Assembly (NCBI RefSeq): GCF_004010195.1
Contig: NC_057719.1
Coordinates: 22,824,193 to 22,875,180 of the forward strand
Reading direction: 5' to 3'
Source of the DNA: Chiloscyllium plagiosum
Taxonomy: Eukaryota
Length of the DNA stretch: 50,988 nt
Shown piece by piece: positions 9,430 through 50,580 of the stretch; position 1 is the stretch's first letter; each line of letters begins with the position of its first letter. A program made the position numbers and the translations under genes. The notes beneath the pieces are model-generated. The model did not search any database. It was not told where the DNA came from and was given only the letters and a program-made list of their open reading frames with translations.

Positions 9430-10426
9430 AGAATCCCTACAGTATAGAAAGAGGCCATTTGGTACATTGACTGTGTAAAGACTATCCCACCCAGACCCCC
9501 ATTCTATTTACCATGGTTCACCCACCTTGCTTACACATTCCTGGACACTACAGAAAGTCCAGGTTCTAGATTAGAGTGGTGCTGGAAAAGCACAGCAGTT
9601 CAGGCAGCATCTGAGGAGCAGGAAAATGGATGTTTCAGGCAAAAGCCCTTCATCAGGAATGGCCTGCAGGGTGGAGAGATAACTGAGAGGAGGGTGGTGT
9701 TGGGAAGAAAGTAGCATAGAGTCCAATAGGTGAATGGGGGTAGGGATGGAGTTGATAGGTCAGGGAGGAGGGTGGGGGAAGGTAACAAAGAGTACAATGG
9801 GTGAGTGGGAGTGGGGAGGAAGGTGATAGGTCAGAAAGGAGGGTGGAGTTGTTAGGTGGAAAGGAAGATAAGCAGGTAGGACAAGTCATGGGGACAATGC
9901 TGAGCTGGAAGTTTGGAGCTGGGGTGAGGGGAAATGAGGAAACTGGTGAAGTCCACATTGATGCCCTGGGGCACTCCACCTCCTCTCTGACCTATCACCT
10001 CCATCCCCACCCCCATTCACCTATTGTACTCTATGCTACTTTCTCCCCAACCCCACCCTCCTCTCATTTATCTCTCCACCCTGCAGGCACTCTGTCTCTA
10101 TTCCTGATGAAGGGCTTTTGCCCGAAACATCGATTTTCCTGCTCCTCGGATGCTGCCTGAACTGCTGTGCTTTTCCAGCACCACTCTAACCTAGAATCTG
10201 GTTTCCAGCATCTGCAGCCCTTGTTTTTACCTAACTACAGAAAGTCCAATCTACCAAACCTACACATCTTTGGACTGTGGGAAGAAACTGAAGCACCTGT
10301 TAGAAACCCACGCAGACACAGGGACAACATGCAAACTCCACACAGACAAAGACCCAAGGCTGGAAATGAACCTGAGTCCTTAGTGCTATGAGTTAGCAGA
10401 GCTAACCATTGAGCCAGTGTGCTGCT
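9430..10426 (-). mobile_element. HE1-type tRNA-derived SINE, split by a PLE insertion
   Basis: Reverse-complement head (GCTAACCATTGAGCCA), body (ACATCTTTGGACTGTGGG, CATGCAAACTCCACACAGAC) and tail (AGAATCCCTACAG). Confidence 0.85.
9562..10233. mobile_element. PLE 3' ends in inverted arrangement, with two hammerhead cores
   Basis: 15-bp TSD ACTACAGAAAGTCCA (9547-61, 10234-48); minus arm encodes PQGINVDFTSFLIS (~9930-9970), resembling the PLE GIY-YIG C-terminus; cores at 10104-10131 (+) and ~9628-9656 (-). Confidence 0.88.
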
Positions 10427-10808
10427 CCCTCTATACTCATATTCTACATCATCCTTGATGTGTCAAACTGAATTTAAGGAGCTATTGTTCCTCACATGGC
10501 ACTCATTTCAGTTGCCAGCAGCAGGAAGAGCGGGAGCTTGGATCAGGAGCCTTTGTTGGGAAATGTGAGTCACTGGTTTAAAACTTTAAAAGCTTACCTC
10601 GAGCGTTGGCAGCTGTGCCTTGGAGAACAGAGGTTTCTGGGAAAGGAAGGACTTTTTTTTCACCTCAGCTATATAAGTGAGTGTTTTCTCAACTCGAGAC
10701 CCTACCCTGTAGGGTCCTCCACCCATCCAACTCCTCTAACCTTAAACACCAGGGACACATCAGAAAAGCTTCTATTTTTTCTACATTCTGATAAAGGAAC
10801 TAGCAGGG

Positions 10809-11177
10809 ATGGCAGCACAGGAAGAGGAATGTTCCTCCTGTATATTGGTTGAGGTGAGGGGTGCCATTAGTGTCCCATCAAAGTACATCTGCAGGAAGTG
10901 CACCCAACTCTTGCTCCTCCAAGACCGCACTGGGGAACTGCAGCGGGAACTAGATGAACTTCGGATCATTCGGAAGGCAGAGGCTGTAATAGAGAAGAGT
11001 TACAGGGAAGCAGTTACTCCTCAGTATGAAGAAAGCTGGGTAACTGTTAGAGGGGGGATAAAACAATCAGTGCAGGGATCACCTGTGGTTGTTCCCCTGA
11101 AAAACAAGTATACCGTTTTGGATATTGTTGGGGGGGAGCAACTTACCAGAGGCATGCAGCAGGGTGCAGGTTTCTGA
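10809..11177 (+). pseudogene. CR1 ORF1 N-terminal remnant (Cys motif + coiled coil)
   Basis: CSSC..x..CRKC, coiled coil ELQRELDELRIIRKAE, VPLKNKYTVL motif typical of CR1 ORF1. Confidence 0.8.
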
Positions 11178-11615
11178 CACAGAGTCTGTCCCTGTTGCAC
11201 AGAAGGGAAGGAGATGGTATGGCCTGAGGTTAAAAACAGGACAGGAGAAGTCACACTGCTGGGAGTTGTCTATAGGCCTCCGCAAAGTTCCAGGGATGTG
11301 AAGGAGTGGATTGGCACATTGGTTCTGGGCAGGAGTGAAAGCAACAGGGTGGTCATTATGGGGGACTTCTTAACCTCCCCAACATTGACTGGGAATGCTA
11401 ATACACAAGTACATTGGATGGATCAGTTTTTGCCCAATGTGTGCAGGAGGGTTTCCTGACACAGTATATTGAAGGGTTGACAAGAGAGAAACCACACTGG
11501 ATCTGGTATTCAGTCATGAGCCAGGCCAGGTGTTTAGTAGTTGGTGAGCATTTTGGAGAGAGTGACTACAATTTGGTTACGTTTAGTTTAGCGATAGACA
11601 GGGATAGATACGTGC

Positions 11616-12032
11616 TGAAAATGTGTTGCTGGAAAAGCGCAGCAGGTCAGGCAGCATCCAGAGAACAGGAGAATCGACATTTCGGGCATAAGCCCTTCTT
11701 CAGGAATGAGGAAAGTGTCAGAGGGAGGAAGAGAGCTTCTTCAAGGAAGGCATCCTTGTTGCTTTTCCAGCAACACATTTTCAGCTCTGATCTCAAGCAT
11801 CTGCAGACCTCACTTTCTCCTCAAAGATTTTAACCTACTGCGAATCCTCTTACAAGGATGCCTTCCTTGAAGAAGCTCTCTTCCTCCCTCTGACACTTTC
11901 CTCATTCCTGAAGAAGGGCTTATGTCCGAAACGTCGATTCTCCTGTTCCCTGCATGCTGCCTGACCTGCTGCGCTTTTCCAGCAACACATTTTCAGCTCT
12001 GATCTCCGCATCTGCAGACCTCACTTTCTCCT
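11616..12032. mobile_element. Non-autonomous mini-PLE: inverted arm + partial tandem ~210-bp hammerhead unit
   Basis: 17-bp TSD CAGGGATAG[A/G]TACGTGC (11599-11615, 12033-12049); direct repeat 11761-11822 / 11971-12033; core CTGAAGA...GAAACGTC at 11908-11935. Confidence 0.88.
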
Positions 12033-12045
12033 CAGGGATAGGTAC

Positions 12046-14093
12046 GTGCCACAGGTCAAGAGTTATCGACGAGGAAAGGGCAATTATAATGCGATTAGGC
12101 AAGACTTAGGAGGCATAGAATGGGCTAGCAAAATGCAGGGGATGGGGACAATCAAAATGTGGAGCTGGTTTAAGAAACAGGTATTGTGTGTCTTTGATAG
12201 ATATGTCCCTGCCAGGCAGGGAGGAAGTGATATGGTAAGGGAACCATGGTTTACTAAAGAAACTGTATCTCTTGTTAAGCAAAAGAGGGAGGTTTATGTG
12301 ATGTTGAGACAAGATGCTTCAGTTGAGGCAATGGAGAGTTACAGATTAGCTAGGAATAGAGAGTTAAGAAGAGCAACGAGGGGACATGAGCAGTCTTTAG
12401 CAGGTAGAATAAAGGAAAACCCTAAAGCTTTCTATAGATACATGAGGAATAAAAGGATGATGAGGGTAGGAATAGGGTCTGTCAAAGACAGAAGTGGGAA
12501 GTTGTGTGTGGACCCTGTGGAGACCAGAGAGGTTCTAAACAAATATTTCTTATCTGTTTTCACTCAGGAAAAGGAGAATATTGTAGAGGAGAAGAATGAG
12601 GTACGAGATATTAGACTAGAAAGGATCGAAGTTAGTTACAAACAGGTGTTATCAATTCTAGAAGGTGTGAAAGTAGACAAGTTCTCTGGGCCGGATTGAA
12701 TTTTTCTGAGAATTCCCTGGGAAACTAGAGAGGAGATAGCTGAGTCTTTGGCCTTGATCTTTAACTCGTCATTGTCTACAGGTTTGGTACCAGAGGACTG
12801 GAGGATTGCAAATGTTATGCCCTTGTTCAAGAAGGGCAGTAGAAATGACCCAGGTAATTATAGACCAGTGAGCCTTACTTCTGTTGTAGGAAAAAGTTTG
12901 GAAAGGACTATAAGAGATAGCATTTATAATCGTCTAACAAGCAACAATTTGATTGGAAATAGTCAACATGGATTCATCAAGGGCAGGTCATGTCTTACAA
13001 ATCTCTTTGAGTTTTTTGAGAAGGTCACCAAGCATGTGAATGAGGGTAGGGCAGTTGATGTGGTGTACATGGAACTCAGCAAAGCCTTTAATAAGGTACC
13101 AGATGGTAGGCTATGCGGAGGCATGGGATTGAAGATGATTTAGCAGCTTGAATTAGAAACTGGCTTTCTGTAAGAAGGCAACAAGTGGTAGTTGATGGAA
13201 AATATTTAGCCTGGAGTCTGGTTTCTAGTGGTGTGCCACAAGGATCTGTTTTGGGACAATTGCTGTTTGTCATTTTTCTAAACGAATTGGACGTAGGCAT
13301 AAGTGGATAGGTTAGTAGGTTTGCAGATGATACTAAAGTCAGTGGAGTGGTGGACAATGTGGAAGCATGTTGTAGGTTGCAGGGAGACTTGGATAAACTG
13401 CAGAATTGGGCTGAAAGGTGGCAAATGGAGTTCAATGCAGCTAAATGTGAGATGATTCACTTTAGGAAGAATAACAGGAAGGCAGAGTACTGGGTCAAAG
13501 GGAAGATTCTTGGTAGTGTGGATGTGCAGAGGGATCTTGGTTCCTACGTACATAGATCCCTGAAAGGTGCCACCCAGTTTGATAGTGCTGTCAAGAAGGC
13601 ATACAATGTGTTAGGTTTTATTGGTAGAGGGATTGAGTTCCAGAGCCATAATGCCATGCTGCAACTGTACAAGACACTAGTACAGCCTCACTTGGAGTAT
13701 TGTGTGCAGTTCTGGTCGCACCATTACAGGAAGGATGTCGAAGTGTTGGAAAAGGTGCAGAGGAGATTCACCAGGATGTTGCCTGGTCTGGAGCGAAAGT
13801 CTTGTGAGGAAAGGCTGAGAGACTTGGGTCTGTTCTCATTGGAGAAAAGAAGGCGAAGAGGGGATTTGATAGAGACATGCAAGATGATCAGAGCATTAGA
13901 TAGGGTGGACAGTGAGAGCATTTTTCCTAAGATAACGGCATCAGCTTGTACGTGGGGGCATAGCTACAAATTGAGGGGTGATAGATTTAAGACAGATGTC
14001 AGAGGCAGGTTCTTTACTCAGAGAGTGGTAAGGGCGTGGAATCCCCTGTCTGCCAATGTAGTTAACTCAGCCACATTAGGGGCATTTAAATAG
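12046..14093 (+). pseudogene. CR1 ORF2 reverse transcriptase, broken into several frames
   Basis: ORFs 12046-12699, 12748-13143 and 13347-14093 are consecutive CR1 ORF2 segments. Confidence 0.92.
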
Positions 14094-14600
14094 TCCTTGG
14101 ATCAGCATATGGATGATGATGGGATAGTGTAGGGGGATGGATTAGTTCACAGGTCGGCACAATATCGAGGGCCGAAGGGCCTGTTCTGTGTTGTATTGTT
14201 CTATGTTCCATGTTCTATGTTATTCCCTTCAGGTTCATTAGTGAATTGTAAAATTAAAATGACCTCTTTGGTGTGAAAGGCATTGCATCACTATCCTTTA
14301 TCAATAAATCCTTTGAACAGTTTTTGGTGGTTCTTCCACTTGAAGGAAAAGAGACAGGACCAACTGTACCTCCTTAAAACAATATATTGTTTCTTGATCA
14401 ATAAAATAGAAAAGGACAGAATTCCAGTCCATAATTGAAAGGGTTGTGAATAAAATAGTCACTTCACAAGTTTGTTCTGACCAGGTGAGATGGATGCACC
14501 CACTACCCTTTTTTCAGTCTCTGCAGTTGGTCACAACAAAGTGTTTATATCTTTTGTCATGAGGCTATACATCTTTCCAATTAAAATGACTGTAGCTGTA

Positions 14601-15008: not shown

Positions 15009-15193
15009 GCCACATTAGGGCCATTTAAATAGTCCTTGGATCAGCATATGGATGATGATGGGATAGTGCAGGGGGATGGATTAGTTCACAGGTCAGCGCA
15101 ATATCGAGGGCCGAAAGGCCTGTTCTGTGTTGTATTGTTCTATGTTCCATGTTCTACGTTATTCCCTTCAGGTTTATTAGCGAATTGTAAAAT
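15009..15193 (+). repeat. 185-bp duplicate of 14070-14254 (CR1 3' end + ~34 bp flank)
   Basis: Near-identical from GCCACATTAGGG to GAATTGTAAAAT. Confidence 0.95.
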
Positions 15194-26910: not shown

Positions 26911-27367
26911 TATTAAAAATATCCACGTAAAACATATGCAGTGAGTATGTAAGGTACAAATCCTGACCAAGCAATTTTCACCTAGTCATTGTTCAACGCA
27001 AGTTGACCACCATCACATCTGAGAAACAGAAGTGATCACATGTTGTAATAAGCAAATCATCTTGTCATGCAGCTGTTTTCATCAATAGCAAACATCCATT
27101 ATTGTATAAGTCGTTTGTTAACATCAGCAACACATCTTAGAAGTCTGCATCAGGTACCTTGGAAACTTTTCCTCTTCATTTTCTTCCCATTACATGTTTG
27201 TGAAGCACTCTCCATGGCTGGCAGAGATTAACTGGGTGTATACAGTTAGGCTTTAACTGAAGGGTTGGTAGCGGAAATCCTAGAAGGTCCTGGCAGTCAT
27301 GTGTACTTCCACCTCTGGAAGGGGCAAGGTGGTGCCAAAGTAGTACCAGAAAGGGCATGGTGTATGA

Positions 27368-27566
27368 GGTAAAAACAATGACTGCAGATGCTGGAAACCA
27401 GATTCTGGATTAGTGGTGCTGGAAGAGCACAGCAGTTCAGACAGCATCCAAGGAGCTTCGAAATCGACGTTTCGGGCAAAAGCCCTTCATCAGGAATGAC
27501 ATTCTGATTCCTGATGAAGCGCTTTTCCCGAAATGTCGATGGTCCTGCTGCCCGGATGCTGTTTGA
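27368..27566. mobile_element. PLE-derived back-to-back double-hammerhead insertion (copy 1)
   Basis: Cores at 27466-27493 (-) and 27511-27537 (+); spacer GACATTCTG; TSD ATGGTGTATGA (27357-67, 27577-87). Confidence 0.85.
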
Positions 27567-28365
27567 ACAATGGTGGATGGTGTATGAACAATGAGGTGGG
27601 CAGATGAAAATGAGAACTCACAGATAGAAACTTTCCATGGGACTCCCTGAAGTTGATACTTATCTATATTTTTGGTAAAATTTTGTCCATAGTTTGTCCC
27701 TTAAAAAGAATGTGGTACAGTTCAGGGAAAACTCAATTGCCCTTGGTGTGAAATAGGAGTGTTTATTTAGAAATCAACAGTTTAGTAAAGAAATATGAAA
27801 GTACAAGCATTCTGCTTCATGAGTATTTGTGTAAGGGGTTTTTACAATTCACAGGACATAACTGAAGAGAAAGAGAGAAATCAAACTGCAAGATTTTACA
27901 TTGGTAGTTTCTGTGAATTTGAATATCTATAAAATGATAGTGTAGACAAGACTCTGTTTCGTTGTATATTTTGTGTTCTATAATTATATAAGTTGGTTTG
28001 GTTTTGTTTTACTTTTCATTTTTTTGTGCAATAAACATCTATTTTACTGAGAAAGAAAAGATATATGTAACTATGTTTCAGTGAATGACCACTCGATGAA
28101 ACCTTTTAAAAATCTCTTAATTCAGATTTCGTTCTGGGATTTAGGTTGTACAGTTGTTCAGATTGTTCCTATTGTGTCTTTAATATTGCCATCTGGGCCA
28201 AGAAGAGCACTCTTGGGAAGTCACACAGAAGCTTTAGGCTTCCCTTCATCCTCCCACACACCATTCCCCAATCTGTTCATTACTTTCAACTCCTCCCCAC
28301 ACCTGGCTGCTTCTCACACCTTTCTCAAAGCTGAGGAACTGGAGTAGGCCAGTCAGTCCCTCAAG

Positions 28366-28581
28366 GCGAAAGTGAGGACTGCGGATGCAGGAGATTAGGG
28401 TGAAGGGTGTGGTGCTGGAAAAGCACAGCAGGTCAGGCAGCATCCGGGCAGCAGGAACATTAACATTTCGGGAAAAGAGCTTCATCAGGAATCAGAATGT
28501 CATTCCTGATGAAGGTCTTTTGCCCGAAACATCAATTTTCCAGCTCCTCAGATGCTGCCTGACCTGCTGTGCTTTTCCAAA
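28366..28581. mobile_element. PLE-derived back-to-back double-hammerhead insertion (copy 2, core inverted), inside a CR1 3' tail remnant
   Basis: Spacer CAGAATGTC (28493-28501); TSD CAGTCCCT[C/G]AAG (28354-65, 28582-93). Confidence 0.85.
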
Positions 28582-28785: not shown

Positions 28786-28890
28786 TCGGGCAAAAGCTCT
28801 GATGAAGGGCTTTTGCCCAAAACGTTGATTTTTCCTGCTCCTCAGGTGCTGCCTGACCTGCTATGCTTTTCCAGCACCACACTCTCGACT
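28786..28890 (+). mobile_element. Short PLE terminus with mutated hammerhead core
   Basis: CTGATGAAGGGCTTTTGCCCAAAACGTTG followed by the family tail; tiny inverted piece TCGGGCAAAAGC in front. Confidence 0.8.
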
Positions 28891-33522: not shown

Positions 33523-34103
33523 TGGGCCTATGTTCACTGGAGTTTAGAAGAATGAGAGGGGATCTTACTGAAATATATAAAGCTCTGATATGGCTGGACA
33601 GACTGGATGCAGGACTGGGGTCTGGAATGAGGAGTCATGGTATCAGGATGCGAGATAAACTATTTTGGGTTGAGATGAAGAGAAATGTCCTCATACTAAA
33701 GGAGTGAATGTGCCAAAGTCTCTACAACAGAAGGTTATAGAGGTAGACTCACTGAAGTTAAAGATGGAAAAGTATATGGCATTGAGGTAGAGGATCAGCC
33801 ATGATCATGTAGAATGGCAGAATGTTCCTGTTTAAGACTGAAAGGCCTACTCCTGCTCTATTTTCTAAATTTCTACATTTTCCATGTTTTCCTACTTTGG
33901 ATTGGCAACAAGGCACTTGACCCTAAATTGCCCTCTGATACCTCCAGGTTATATGTTAGTTGAATTATTGAAGACCAGTCACAGCTAAAAATGAATGGCT
34001 GAATAATATTGAGACTTCCAAGCTTATATTTGGGTGACAAACTTTGTGCAATAGGCTGGCAGCCCATCAGCTTTTCCTCCACTGTTGGATGGTTTGGAGC
34101 TGG

Positions 34104-34415
34104 GTCGAGAGTGTGGTGCTGGAAAAGCACAGCAGGTCAGGCAGCATCTGAGGAGCAGAAAGTGAGGTCTGCAGATGCTGGAGATCAGAGATGGAAATGT
34201 GTTGCTGGAAAAGCGCAGCAGGTCAGGCAGCATCTAGGGAACAGGAGAGTCGACATTTCGGGCATAAGCCCTTCATCAGGAAAGGACTGATGAAAGGCTT
34301 ATGCCCAAAACGTTGATTCTCCTGCTCCTCGGATGCAACCTGACCTGCTGTACTTTTCCAGCACCACACTCCCGATGACGATCTCCAGCCTCTATAGTCC
34401 AGACTTTCTCCTGAA
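34104..34415. mobile_element. Composite PLE fold-back (two minus arms + one plus arm)
   Basis: TSD TTGGAGCTGG (34094-103, 34416-25); intact-looking minus core ~34251-34279, mutated plus core ~34287-34315. Confidence 0.8.
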
Positions 34416-34644: not shown

Positions 34645-35557
34645 CAGAGGAACCTCGATTATCCGAATATCAATTATCCAAATATCAGATTATCTGAAGG
34701 GGATCTCAAGGTTTCAATAGAAACATTATGTCGAAGAGCCGTTTCAACCCTGATTACATCTTTTGTTTACAGGTACGATGATTATAAACGGACTTGGCTG
34801 ACTGAAATGCTGCCGCGAACAGTCTTGGACAGTCTCGGCACCATCTCCAAATGACTGACCTCTCGCTCTCTCTCTCTCTCCCCCCACACCTTCCCTGGAG
34901 TTCTAGAATATAGAACATAGAACATAGAAGAATACAGCGCAGTACAGGCCCTTTGGCCCTCGATGTTGCTCCGATCCAAGCCCACCTAACCTACACTAGC
35001 CCACTATCCTTCATATGCCTATCCAATGCCCGCTTAAATGCCCATAAAGAGGGAGAGTCCACCACTGCTACTGGCAGGGCATTCCATGAACTATACAGGG
35101 GTGAACCCTAAATCCTCCTTCCCCAGATATCTCTCCAACATTGTCCTGCACAGGGCAGAGGAGGAACCTGTCAAAAGGTTTGTGTGTGCGTGTGTGCGTG
35201 TGCTATTGGGAGACTTAGCCCAGAAAGGCAGCATCAGTCTTACTGTAGGCATACAGTCCGACTTCCCCAGGCCAGGATGGCCAGGGAGGGGGAGGGGGTG
35301 GGTGCAGTGTTGGATGGGGTTGGGGATGGACGGGGGACAGTGTTGGACTGGTTGGGCGAGGGGGCGGTGTTTGACAGTGAAGGCGGACGGTGTTGGGGGC
35401 GGGGGCTCACGCACAGTGTGCTTTTGCTTAATCTCCTGAATAAGGAGAAGACTCCACAGAAAACTCTGAGTCCCAGAGGAAATCAATCAACTGAATAATC
35501 AATTATCCGAGGAAAATAGTGCCCGCCTACCTCGTTCAGATAATCGAGGTTCCCCTG
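34645..35557. mobile_element. Long pogo/Tigger-like non-autonomous DNA transposon containing a CR1 tail
   Basis: TA + CAGAGGAACCTCGATTATC ... GATAATCGAGGTTCCCCTG; subterminal GATTATCCGAA-like repeats; nested minus CR1 3' end ~34904-35092. Confidence 0.85.
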
Positions 35558-38079: not shown

Positions 38080-40210
38080 GTGTGCTATCTTTTGGAATGG
38101 AGGGCGGTGGTGAGAAATGAAGAGGAGTCTGGGAGAAACTAAGAAACAAAATGGAGGCTTCTGTTGAATACTGGAATAATAATTGCAATAGAATTCAGGA
38201 AGAGTATCTCAAAAGCAGGAGAGAGATTGGAATAAGGACGTCTAGATGAAGCGTAAGGCAAGGATGGAAGACTACACTAAACAAATTGAAAAATGTTCTT
38301 CAAACATTTTAAGAGGAAAAGATTTTTAAAGAATAGAGTCGGGCCGATAAGGAACACACAGGGTAAGCTCCTCTGCAAAGCAAAGGGCAGACCACACTTT
38401 GTTCTGTCTTTCCAAATTAGAAAGTGATGGCAATGGCCAGTTGAAATTGTGGGTGTTAGCTAACTGAGCTATACAGTGATAGATATAGAAAACGTGCTAA
38501 AATGGCAGGCAGGATTCTGTGTAGAGAAGTCATCAGGTCTGGATGGGATGCATTTTGGATTGCCGAGAGAGGTAAGGAAGCAAACTGTGGACTTATTGAC
38601 AGACGTTTTCCAGGCCTCTCTGAGCACAGGATGAGTCACAGGGGACTGGAGGATTGGAGCTTGACATCAGCACGGGAAAACTGATTGGGGCCATAAACAT
38701 GGGATAAGATAAATATATACTGAGAGAAAAATAATACTAGACGGTCAACATAGCTTTATCAGTAGCAGGTCATATCTGACAAATTTAATAGAGTTCTTTG
38801 ACATGGTGACATAGGCTGGGGATGAAGGTAGTGCTGCAGATGTTGTACATTTGGAAAGCATTTGATAGGGTGCCACATGGTAGGTTGGTTAGCAAATTAG
38901 AAATGCTTGGGACTGATGGGTCCATGATTAGAAGTTGGTGAAAAGATAAGAAACAGAGGGAAGGTATAGATGGGCATTTCTCAGACTTGACATGAATTGA
39001 AAGTGGTACTCCCCAGAGATTGGTGCTTGGACCTTTGTTTTCTTTATTTATATAAATGACGTGGAGATGGCAGTTGAAGACAAAATCTCTAAACTGCAGA
39101 TAATGCTGAGCTACGGAGAATAGTGAATTGTGTGGATGACACTGAATGACTTAAGAGGAATATTGTCGAAAAGTGTGGTACTGGAAAAGCACAGCAGGTC
39201 AGGCAGCATCCAAGGAGCAGGAGAACGATGTTTCAGGCATAAGCCCTTCAAAAGGAATATGGGGGTGGGGAGGTGCGTGGAGTGCTGGGGGGGAAGAGGG
39301 CTGAGAGATCATTTATCTCTCCTGCTCATTGGACGCTGCCTGACCTGCTGTGCTTTTCCAGCGCCATAAGTTTCGACTCTGATCTCCAGCATCTACACAC
39401 CTCACTTTCTCCTTAAGAGGACAAGTTGACTAAATGGGCAGACACCTGGCAAATGAAATTCAATGCAGAGAAAAGTGAGGTAATGCATTTTTGTAGGAGA
39501 AAAACCATGCATAGACAATATAGACTCAAATTTGAGGGGAGTACAGGAACAGAGGAGCCCTTGGGGTTCAATTGCAGAATTCTTTGAATGTAGCCAGGCA
39601 AGTTGAAACAATTGTTAAGGATAGGATCTTTGGGTTTATATATAGAAGCATAGAGTATTAAAGCAAGGAAGTGATGTTACATCTCTACAAGACCATATTT
39701 AGAGTATTGTGTTCAGTTGTGGGCACCTTATTTAAGGAAGGAAACTAAAACACTAGAGAATGTAGCAGAGATTTACTAGCATGATACCAGGAATGAGGAA
39801 TTTTAGATACAAGTAAAAATTATGAAATTGTGTTTATTCTCCTTGGAACAGAGAAAATTACGGTGTTCAAAATTATGAACAATCTTGACAGGGTAAAGGA
39901 AGATATTTGTTTCCACGAGTTGGGATGTCAGTCATTCGGGGTCACACTTTCAAGATTGCCAGGGGGGTCTGAAGTGAGATGAGGAGAAATTAATTTAAAC
40001 GGAGAGTTGTTAGGATTTGGAATGTATCGTCTGGGAAAATGGTGGAGACGGGTTCCATAAGAAGTTTCAAAAGAGAGCTGGATATATATTTGAAAACGGT
40101 GAATTTAGCGGGCTACGGAGATAGGGCTAGAGAATGGGACGAGCGGGTTAGCTCTTTCGGGAGCTGGTACAAACATGAGATTGAATGGCCTGCAAAATTC
40201 TATGATTCCA
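38080..40210 (+). mobile_element. Old CR1 ORF2 fragment
   Basis: Decayed QHSFISSRSYLTNLIEFF, KAFDRVPH, PQRLVLGP, LEYCVQLW motifs. Confidence 0.8.
39160..39411. mobile_element. PLE fold-back insertion
   Basis: TSD CTTAAGAGGA (39150-59, 39412-21); inverted arms. Confidence 0.8.
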
Positions 40211-50251: not shown

Positions 50252-50580
50252 TGAGTGAAAGAAAAGTGCAATTTTTTTTCCATGTTAACTCTGAAAAGCA
50301 ATAATAAAAATGGGATGTCATGTTACAGACACACACGGACACAAAGTTAAAGGGATAGTGTTCATAGAACATAGAACATAGAAAAATACAGCGCTGTACA
50401 GGCCCTTTGGCCCTCGTGAGTGAAAGACAAGTGCACCTCTCTTTCCACGTTAACTCTGACAAGCAATAATACAAATGGGATGTCATGTTACAGACACACA
50501 CAGACACAAAGTTAAAGGGATAGTGTTCATAGAACATAGAACATAGAAAAATACAGCGCTGTACAGGCCCTTTGGCCCTC
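50252..50580. repeat. Tandem duplication, 165-bp period
   Basis: 50252-50415 vs 50417-50580. Confidence 0.95.

Follow-up and report, generated by a model that had tools for sequence, protein, structure and literature searches.

The question raised by this locus is whether an internal join, present in both arms of a palindromic insertion, already existed in the RNA from which the insertion was copied, and what kind of RNA that was. The original prediction had proposed a tiny non-coding retroelement, copied for more than one unit length from a circular or concatemeric, ribozyme-processed RNA. The insert occupies positions 11616-12033 (418 bp) of the window, i.e., of the whole 51-kb stretch of Chiloscyllium plagiosum DNA that was analysed, and lies between two target copies. 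From left to right it consists of an inverted arm, a truncated upstream repeat and a 211-nt unit, such that the direct part (11760-12033) amounts to about 1.3 copies of the unit. Individual features are listed in Table 1. The predicted tail (11761-11822), followed by a full unit (11823-12033) ending in the same tail, stands with corrections of 1-2 nt, and the predicted inverted arm with the same junction (11614-11758) is recovered as 11616-11759. The unit indeed contains one hammerhead core and no 100-aa ORF. Concerning the junction itself, the claim that both arms share it is correct, while its true position is 1-2 nt to the right of the proposed one.

Table 1: Features of the insert and of its host element, in window positions.
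Feature	Positions	Strand	Remark
Host CR1-type LINE, 5' part	10746..11599	+	decayed ORFs; frames 10746-11177 and 11402 onward
Left TSD	11600..11615	+	16 nt (17 with C11599)
Inverted arm	11616..11759	-	equals sense 11852-11995, crosses junction
5'-truncated upstream repeat	11760..11822	+	last 62-63 nt of terminal repeat including tail
Parent sequence downstream of tail	11823..11891	+	69 nt; from relatives' joints and depth
Extra G at head-to-tail join	11892..11892	+	in both arms
Start of terminal repeat	11893..11907	+	stubs usually start at A11904
Minimal type I hammerhead motif	11908..11939	+	core 11908-11935; read by hand
Remaining terminal repeat to short end	11940..11997	+	short end is putative second RT start
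One-sided tail, 36 nt	11998..12033	+	long end is putative first RT start
Right TSD	12034..12049	+	pairs with left TSD
Host CR1-type LINE, RT-bearing part	12050..14093	+	with stops; RVT_1

The two TSD copies (11599/11600-11615 and 12033/12034-12049) agree over 16-17 nt with one mismatch. GC at 11614-11615 fits both arm and target, the final CA of the 36-nt tail (to 12033) fits the target too, and 7/10 terminal bases of the left TSD can pair with element positions 11996-12005. That is, microhomology to the target is seen at both outer ends (7/10 and 5/7 bases), and none was found at the insert centre, where arm and upstream repeat meet. The arm differs from sense 11852-11995 by 4 mismatches in 144 nt (E 8e-68), and 11760/61-11822 repeats 11972/73-12033 over 61-63 nt with 97% identity (E 2e-24). 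Both halves agree at every position of the 64 nt surrounding the join (11852-11915), and all four arm differences are located further 3'; judged against the majority base of the relatives introduced below, two of them are private to each half. One change, C to T, affects the helix III palindrome of the arm's hammerhead. Arm, tail repeat and TSD show a similar decay of about 1.6% per copy, which fits a single insertion event. The host frame resumes 3' of the insert and becomes continuous once the insert and one TSD are removed. We take this host LINE to be of the CR1 type from its sequence likeness. Among its five frames, two matched anything in Pfam, with RVT_1 (PF00078) found at 12700-13140 (E 1.1e-9), while the frames 10746-11177 and 11402 onward gave no Pfam match.

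This layout is that of a textbook PLE insertion. EN+ PLE insertions are described as partial tandems with an adjacent inverted 5'-truncated copy, a one-sided tail of 30-40 bp and a TSD (PMC3846280; PMC8557442). Here we likewise find a TSD, an inverted arm, a truncated upstream repeat that makes the direct part a pseudo-LTR partial tandem, a body and a terminal repeat with a 36-nt tail, as well as a hand-read minimal hammerhead within the terminal repeat. The outer end of the arm is the short ('tail-less') end of the PLE family. An internally deleted PLE derivative of the same layout has been published for Adineta (PMC3846280, PMC8557442), where TSDs have 8-10 bp compared to 16-17 bp here. In contrast to EN+ PLEs, the body is reduced to 69 nt and one G, no RT or GIY-YIG sequence is present, and the inverted arm crosses the join and extends into the body. 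We found no published PLE insertion in the open literature whose inverted arm shares an internal join; the family tables of a 2026 preprint (bioRxiv 10.64898/2026.07.22.740005) may hold the unit. Other non-autonomous elements are comparable in part, e.g., R2 SIDEs, which keep a ribozyme and cis sequences and have a template-jump or recombination origin (PMC3414825), and Chlamys MRC1 with its head-to-tail copies (PMC8557442). Both are multi-copy lineages, however, whereas a single locus is seen here, and R2 further differs by its HDV-like ribozyme and its fixed rDNA site (PMC3414825).

For the origin of the unit we used contigs and reads from 4 of 24 listed sequencing runs (including X1 and X3), compared over 11823-12272. 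The search that yielded these runs listed no RNA run sharing the sequence. The best DNA runs share 0.38 of 107 words and are taken as relatives, i.e., as other species. In their contigs, parent sequence runs through T11891 and the other side starts at A11893, such that G11892 fits neither. Downstream of 11891, one X3 joint (depth 165) shows the parent going on as ACAAGG, a different parent sequence is found upstream of 11893 (49 X3 contigs, consensus agreement 0.64), and the tail continues into 11823 (joints 12033 to 11824 in X1 and X3, and 12031 to 11823). Contig depth over 11823..11891 reaches 3e5-1e6. Read from these joints, the unit corresponds to 210 uninterrupted nt of a very abundant PLE parent, with its end joined to its start via one G. 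The first of these bases lies 11 nt upstream of 11904, where stubs usually start, and the last one lies 69 nt beyond the tail. The identical unit sequence would result from a tandem duplication, from circularisation or from a deletion between two terminal repeats. Within the window, the join is restricted to the studied locus: the 20-nt junction word occurs exactly twice, once per arm (11710-11729 in the inverted one), where shuffles expect none, and the 5' part of the unit is found nowhere else.

An ATG frame of 11 codons starts at 11858 within the 69-nt piece, and the join supplies its stop; in the parent the frame reads on. It is probably the start of the PLE ORF. The predicted non-coding nature of the unit is supported. 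PLE coding sequence in the window consists of short remnants only, and two protein searches scored nothing at E<=10, i.e., neither the read-through 43-aa frame (4 candidates) nor a 41-aa coding remnant of a sister family (8 candidates) matched a PLE protein at that level. The predicted PLE origin is nevertheless supported by the architecture and the minimal hammerhead.

The extra G is a candidate cap-derived or untemplated base; for L1 and SVA, an untemplated 5' G was ascribed to cap copying (PMC3287187). Stub joints and loose ends in the relatives' contigs fall at 11904-11905. A11904 is part of TCATTCC, an initiator-like motif. A G directly precedes 11904 in 6/6 joints listed (among the best 12 of 107), where the window has C. 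Together with the initiator-like motif, this G is a possible cap signature of PLE transcription start, but it could instead be a subfamily base.

Whether the arm is an independent copy was assessed on the other PLE ends of the window, which holds about a dozen hammerhead-type end loci (5766-45525) and 24 matches of the hammerhead core pattern vs 5.9 expected. For 6/8 TSD-flanked head-to-head inserts (including the studied locus), the short arm ends at the equivalents of 11995-12002, the exceptions being an odd pair at 27367 and 28364. These ends were read by eye, only 9 nt of the TSD at 39165 are clear, and the count leaves out a nested insert (34102-34415) as well as unpaired copies at 28799 and 45421. 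At the long end, 10/10 other tailed copies stop at the equivalents of 12027-12034. The short end thus lies 36 nt inside the long end, and the difference is the PLE tail. This matches the in vitro finding that the tail lies between two RT starts, which are used on both target strands (PMC11167929).

In 4/5 other regular palindromes (9559, 39165, 33306, 15396) the 5' reach of the short arm exceeds that of the tailed copy by about 190, 90, 10 and 8 nt, i.e., these arms are not fold-backs of the tailed copy, although asymmetric deletion at the palindrome centres could mimic such independence. The two halves at 9559 are, moreover, unlike each other directly 5' of the hammerhead. In the simplest reading, a staggered cut provides two ends, each of which primes a separate cDNA, and these cDNAs are the arms of the palindrome. 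Given these independent arms and microhomology at the outer ends only, the simplest reading for the studied locus is that join and G were fixed in the template, and the join probably pre-existed in the template of both arms. The predicted presence of the short form in the RNA template gains support accordingly from the shared join and G and from the sister insertions. The studied arm itself lies wholly inside the direct copy; if it were a fold-back of the first cDNA, the shared join would be uninformative about the RNA template. An ORF run-on was considered as source of the arm and rejected.

The hammerhead motif at 11908-11939 comprises a CUGAAGA core, an unpaired A, a 4-bp helix II (one G-U), a GAAA and a loop-less palindromic helix III (ACGU). 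Its core nucleotides are intact, while helix I is weak (2 bp, U-U, 1 bp). It is the only sense hammerhead of the locus, the arm copy being on the opposite strand. The motif resembles the minimal hammerheads of metazoan PLEs in its core, in having an unpaired base ahead of helix II, in G10.1-C11.1, in a palindromic helix III devoid of a loop and in its dimer-only design; opposite-strand pairs 100-700 bp apart are also known for those hammerheads, and helix II has 4 bp here vs 7-8 in them, besides the short helix I here (PMC4209133). It could work only as a dimer. In our model of the 38-nt motif, computed without distal pairing, the double hammerhead (-5.1 kcal/mol) is opposed by a competing dimer of -16.5 kcal/mol. 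Positions 11931-11938 harbour two overlapping palindromes, namely ACGU of the active dimer and GUCGAU, which spans the cut site. The latter is favoured in co-folding and could hold the ribozyme off.

Self-pairing of the unit is no better than that of shuffled sequences, both for the linear (z -0.54, 55/200 shuffles as good) and the circular fold (z -0.15, 80/200). An Rfam search at E<=1 reported no hammerhead and 8 matches that are all hairpin-driven and below gathering score; among these, a MIR2118-like precursor was rejected, its signal being the pairing of the arm with the unit. Cleavage is predicted after C11935. Since the join lies 43 nt upstream of this cut site, the ribozyme did not make the join, and we rejected a cleavage-ligation scar for the same distance. 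Furthermore, with one hammerhead buried in a 144-bp hairpin, a plus-strand transcript cannot release a monomer; the locus, modelled this way, is probably dead.

These results bear on the comparison with animal non-LTR retrozymes (PMC7229834), which the unit resembles in being non-coding and short (211 nt), in its type I hammerhead, a GC content below 50% and a long TSD. Its length and its GC content of 0.49 are within the retrozyme range (150-450 bp, GC <50%). Li, Clavereau and Pollet (2026) propose an origin of retrozymes from the PLE terminal repeat and report families in one chondrichthyan with a mean of 363 bp (bioRxiv 10.64898/2026.07.22.740005), and our unit derives from a PLE terminal repeat as well. 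On the other hand, retrozymes are expected to show at least two tandem units each with a complete hammerhead, as does the 'active' class of that preprint, whereas the locus has 1.3 units and one sense hammerhead, and neither a 211-nt tandem array nor a run of at least two hammerhead units occurs in the 51-kb window. Instead of a canonical type I motif (6-bp helix I, loop-loop contacts) it has a minimal one, and the monomer pairs with itself no better than shuffles do, in contrast to retrozyme circles (PMC7229834). The inverted arm sets it apart, too. Lacking the two hammerhead units, the canonical motif and the self-pairing, it is not classed as a retrozyme; it may descend from, or lead to, one.

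Next to the abundance of the parent, the join is rare in the relatives' runs. Strict depth at 11892 is 164.5 (X1) and 74.7 (X3) vs 854,945 and 260,635 at 11852, and 50.3 and 29.6 of it, respectively, carry C, not G. A laxer count gives 4,432 (X1) and 3,547 (X3), where summed contig depth does not equal copy number. Since a joint present at a single locus in the relatives has a depth of about 30, the strict count leaves room for no more than a few loci with the join. Four records cross 11892 without the G (two X3 contigs, one of X15 and 1/2,208 reads of X21) and may be G-less versions of the join or flanks that fit by chance. The relative's RNA run is a poly(A) single-cell library, of which 2% was read. 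No orthologous locus was found among the relatives' pieces listed. An exact search of JGI metagenome contigs returned 0 hits for the junction word and 0 for an ORF-start word, which is uninformative for a vertebrate. As the best runs share only 0.38 of the words, a young species-specific family may still exist.

Given these observations, we favour, with about as much belief as doubt, that the insert is a second-generation copy of a non-autonomous, non-coding PLE derivative, made from a linear tandem transcript. At an earlier time and at another locus, the RT of a PLE would have reached the 5' terminus of its template at 11893 and incorporated one further nucleotide, visible as the G and perhaps added opposite the cap; by then switching to a site 69 nt beyond the tail, it would have created a head-to-tail genomic repeat of the 211-nt piece. 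A run-off of this kind, from a capped 5' end and with a short jump after it, is inferred by analogy to the R2 RT, which makes end-to-end template jumps (PMC3414825). The source locus would then have been transcribed as ordinary linear RNA bearing the join. Finally, a PLE RT/GIY-YIG protein acting in trans would have cut the CR1 site with a stagger of 16-17 nt, and each cut end would have primed its own cDNA, with 274 nt (1.3 units) from the long end and 144 nt from the short end, before both were joined head to head. While the resulting structure is observed, the enzymology of this step is modelled on Anolis Poseidon, where two internal RT starts bound the tail and both target strands are cut and extended in vitro (PMC11167929). 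The same system differs in that PAc starts without homology, whereas microhomology is found here at both outer ends, and the target is not AT-rich here (PMC11167929).

The identity of join and G in both arms and the arm's end at the recurrent short end argue for the second-generation copy. The hammerhead would be a passenger, with neither cleavage nor circle required, and unprocessed RNA is the main substrate of the Anolis PLE protein in vitro (PMC11167929). That protein requires RNA downstream of the RT start: it needs the first 172 nt of the ORF and starts at 111-118, i.e., 54-61 nt are needed downstream (PMC11167929), compared to 69 nt of kept sequence past the long end here. If the locus shares this need, a fixed join implies a template that was either circular or at least two full units long. 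This is the best argument for the 'concatemeric' part of the original prediction and favours a circle no more than a read-through transcript. Points against the second-generation copy are that no source locus or sister copy exists in the 51 kb, that the join is rare in relatives, that no PLE protein matched, that numbers are small and that a subfamily base could account for the G before 11904. Besides, the arm's position inside the direct copy leaves room for a fold-back here, and the literature offers self-priming as well as resolution of the tail by an endonuclease as alternatives (PMC3846280, PMC8557442).

Such a fold-back would imply a one-off jump during the first cDNA at this site, with the arm being a second-strand copy that was cut or ended at the short end. 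We consider this unlikely: the arm's position as well as the uniqueness of the join in the window and its rarity in relatives are in line with it, self-priming was proposed for PLE palindromes (PMC3846280) and the tail was formerly ascribed to endonuclease resolution (PMC8557442), but no base pairing is available to prime at 11852 and the arms of 4/5 sister palindromes are not copies of the tailed half. It is quite unlikely that a PLE protein dimer copied one short RNA twice, namely a linear, capped molecule of about 210 nt that started at 11893, extended 69 nt beyond the tail and may have been trimmed to the footprint of the protein, with each RT reaching the cap, adding a base and jumping end to end, such that the join arose in cDNA only. 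This would need no source locus, consistent with the rarity in relatives, and it suits a unit that is a continuous parent piece starting 11 nt from the usual 5' end, the extra G, a downstream part near the in vitro minimum, the predicted dimer with two RT starts (PMC11167929) and the known end-to-end jumps of R2 (PMC3414825). Yet both jumps would have to land on one and the same nucleotide and involve an identical added base, no pile-up of RNA ends is seen in the relative's poly(A) run, and no joint of the 11891-to-11904 type is among those listed.

The original prediction, i.e., a 211-nt retrozyme RNA that is cleaved by a dimeric hammerhead from a tandem array, circularised and copied for 1.3 rounds, appears decidedly improbable. 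The unit falls within the 170-400 nt of animal retrozymes with 49% GC and a long TSD (PMC7229834), its hammerhead core is intact, circular templates were proposed for PLEs (PMC4209133), retrozymes exist in one chondrichthyan (bioRxiv 10.64898/2026.07.22.740005), and the RT's need for downstream sequence would imply at least two full units or a circle (by extension from PMC11167929). A circular or ribozyme-processed RNA is disfavoured by the distance of 43 nt between join and cut, the unit's lack of self-pairing and the protein's preference for unprocessed RNA (PMC11167929), besides the minimal, non-canonical hammerhead with its more stable competing dimer and the missing 211-nt array in the window. 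In frog, 8/9 predicted dimers failed to cleave (bioRxiv 10.64898/2026.07.22.740005), and in the relative's RNA 1/2,208 reads covers 11892, without G, which is weak evidence given the poly(A) library of which 2% was read. Nor does copying of more than one unit length signal circular or concatemeric RNA; a partial tandem is the ordinary PLE layout (PMC8557442, PMC3846280), and we reject that more than one unit proves a circle. We regard it as highly improbable that gene conversion between the arms or a mis-assembly placed the join into the arm. The 64 identical nt around it, with differences only further 3', would agree with this, and assemblers struggle with palindromes (PMC8557442); the 4 differences in 144 nt (two private per half), the equal decay of TSD and tail, the clean TSD and the resuming host frame speak against it.

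The locus bears on how PLE tandem and inverted structures form and on how animal retrozymes arise from PLEs, for which the 2026 preprint gives kinship and no mechanism. A wider reading, which we put forward as doubtful, is that the locus records the birth of a retrozyme from a PLE. Run-off at a capped 5' end and a short jump would have produced a 211-nt minimal replicon (hammerhead, both RT starts and about 70 nt for protein binding) marked by a cap-derived G, which would have propagated as tandem or circular RNA in a low-copy species lineage; the shared join would show that the arms are two cDNAs from one staggered cut. PLE-derived retrozymes are already published, including one chondrichthyan, and the shared join rests on one locus. 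As a cheap natural marker, the join allows a genome-wide count to separate two cDNAs from RNA from a fold-back, and the unit predicts the minimal RNA required by the protein of this PLE family. If the join is unique, the locus is merely another complex PLE insertion among thousands.

Some further structures were observed in the window. The sister-family palindrome at 9559-10233 has a 15-nt TSD, and its arm shows a 71-nt tandem duplication, reaches the apparent end of a PLE ORF and is about 11 nt shorter than the other half directly 5' of the hammerhead. The head-to-head inserts 27367-27575 and 28364-28579 are separated by 1 kb, appear to have a TSD each and share their centre. They combine the same two subfamily arms (89% over 142 nt), with the subfamily of the tailed arm swapped between them, as if a ready-made two-family palindrome had been copied from RNA both ways or a template switch onto the neighbour had occurred. 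At 34102-34415, a young PLE end (34154-34282) lies within an older palindrome of another subfamily, with a short match at the tail. Finally, a LINE 3' end is duplicated at 14070-14254 and 15009-15193 (185 nt, 96%, 0.9 kb apart), and a 165-nt two-copy tandem at 50252-50580 has a 96% relative 15 kb away (34910-35092).
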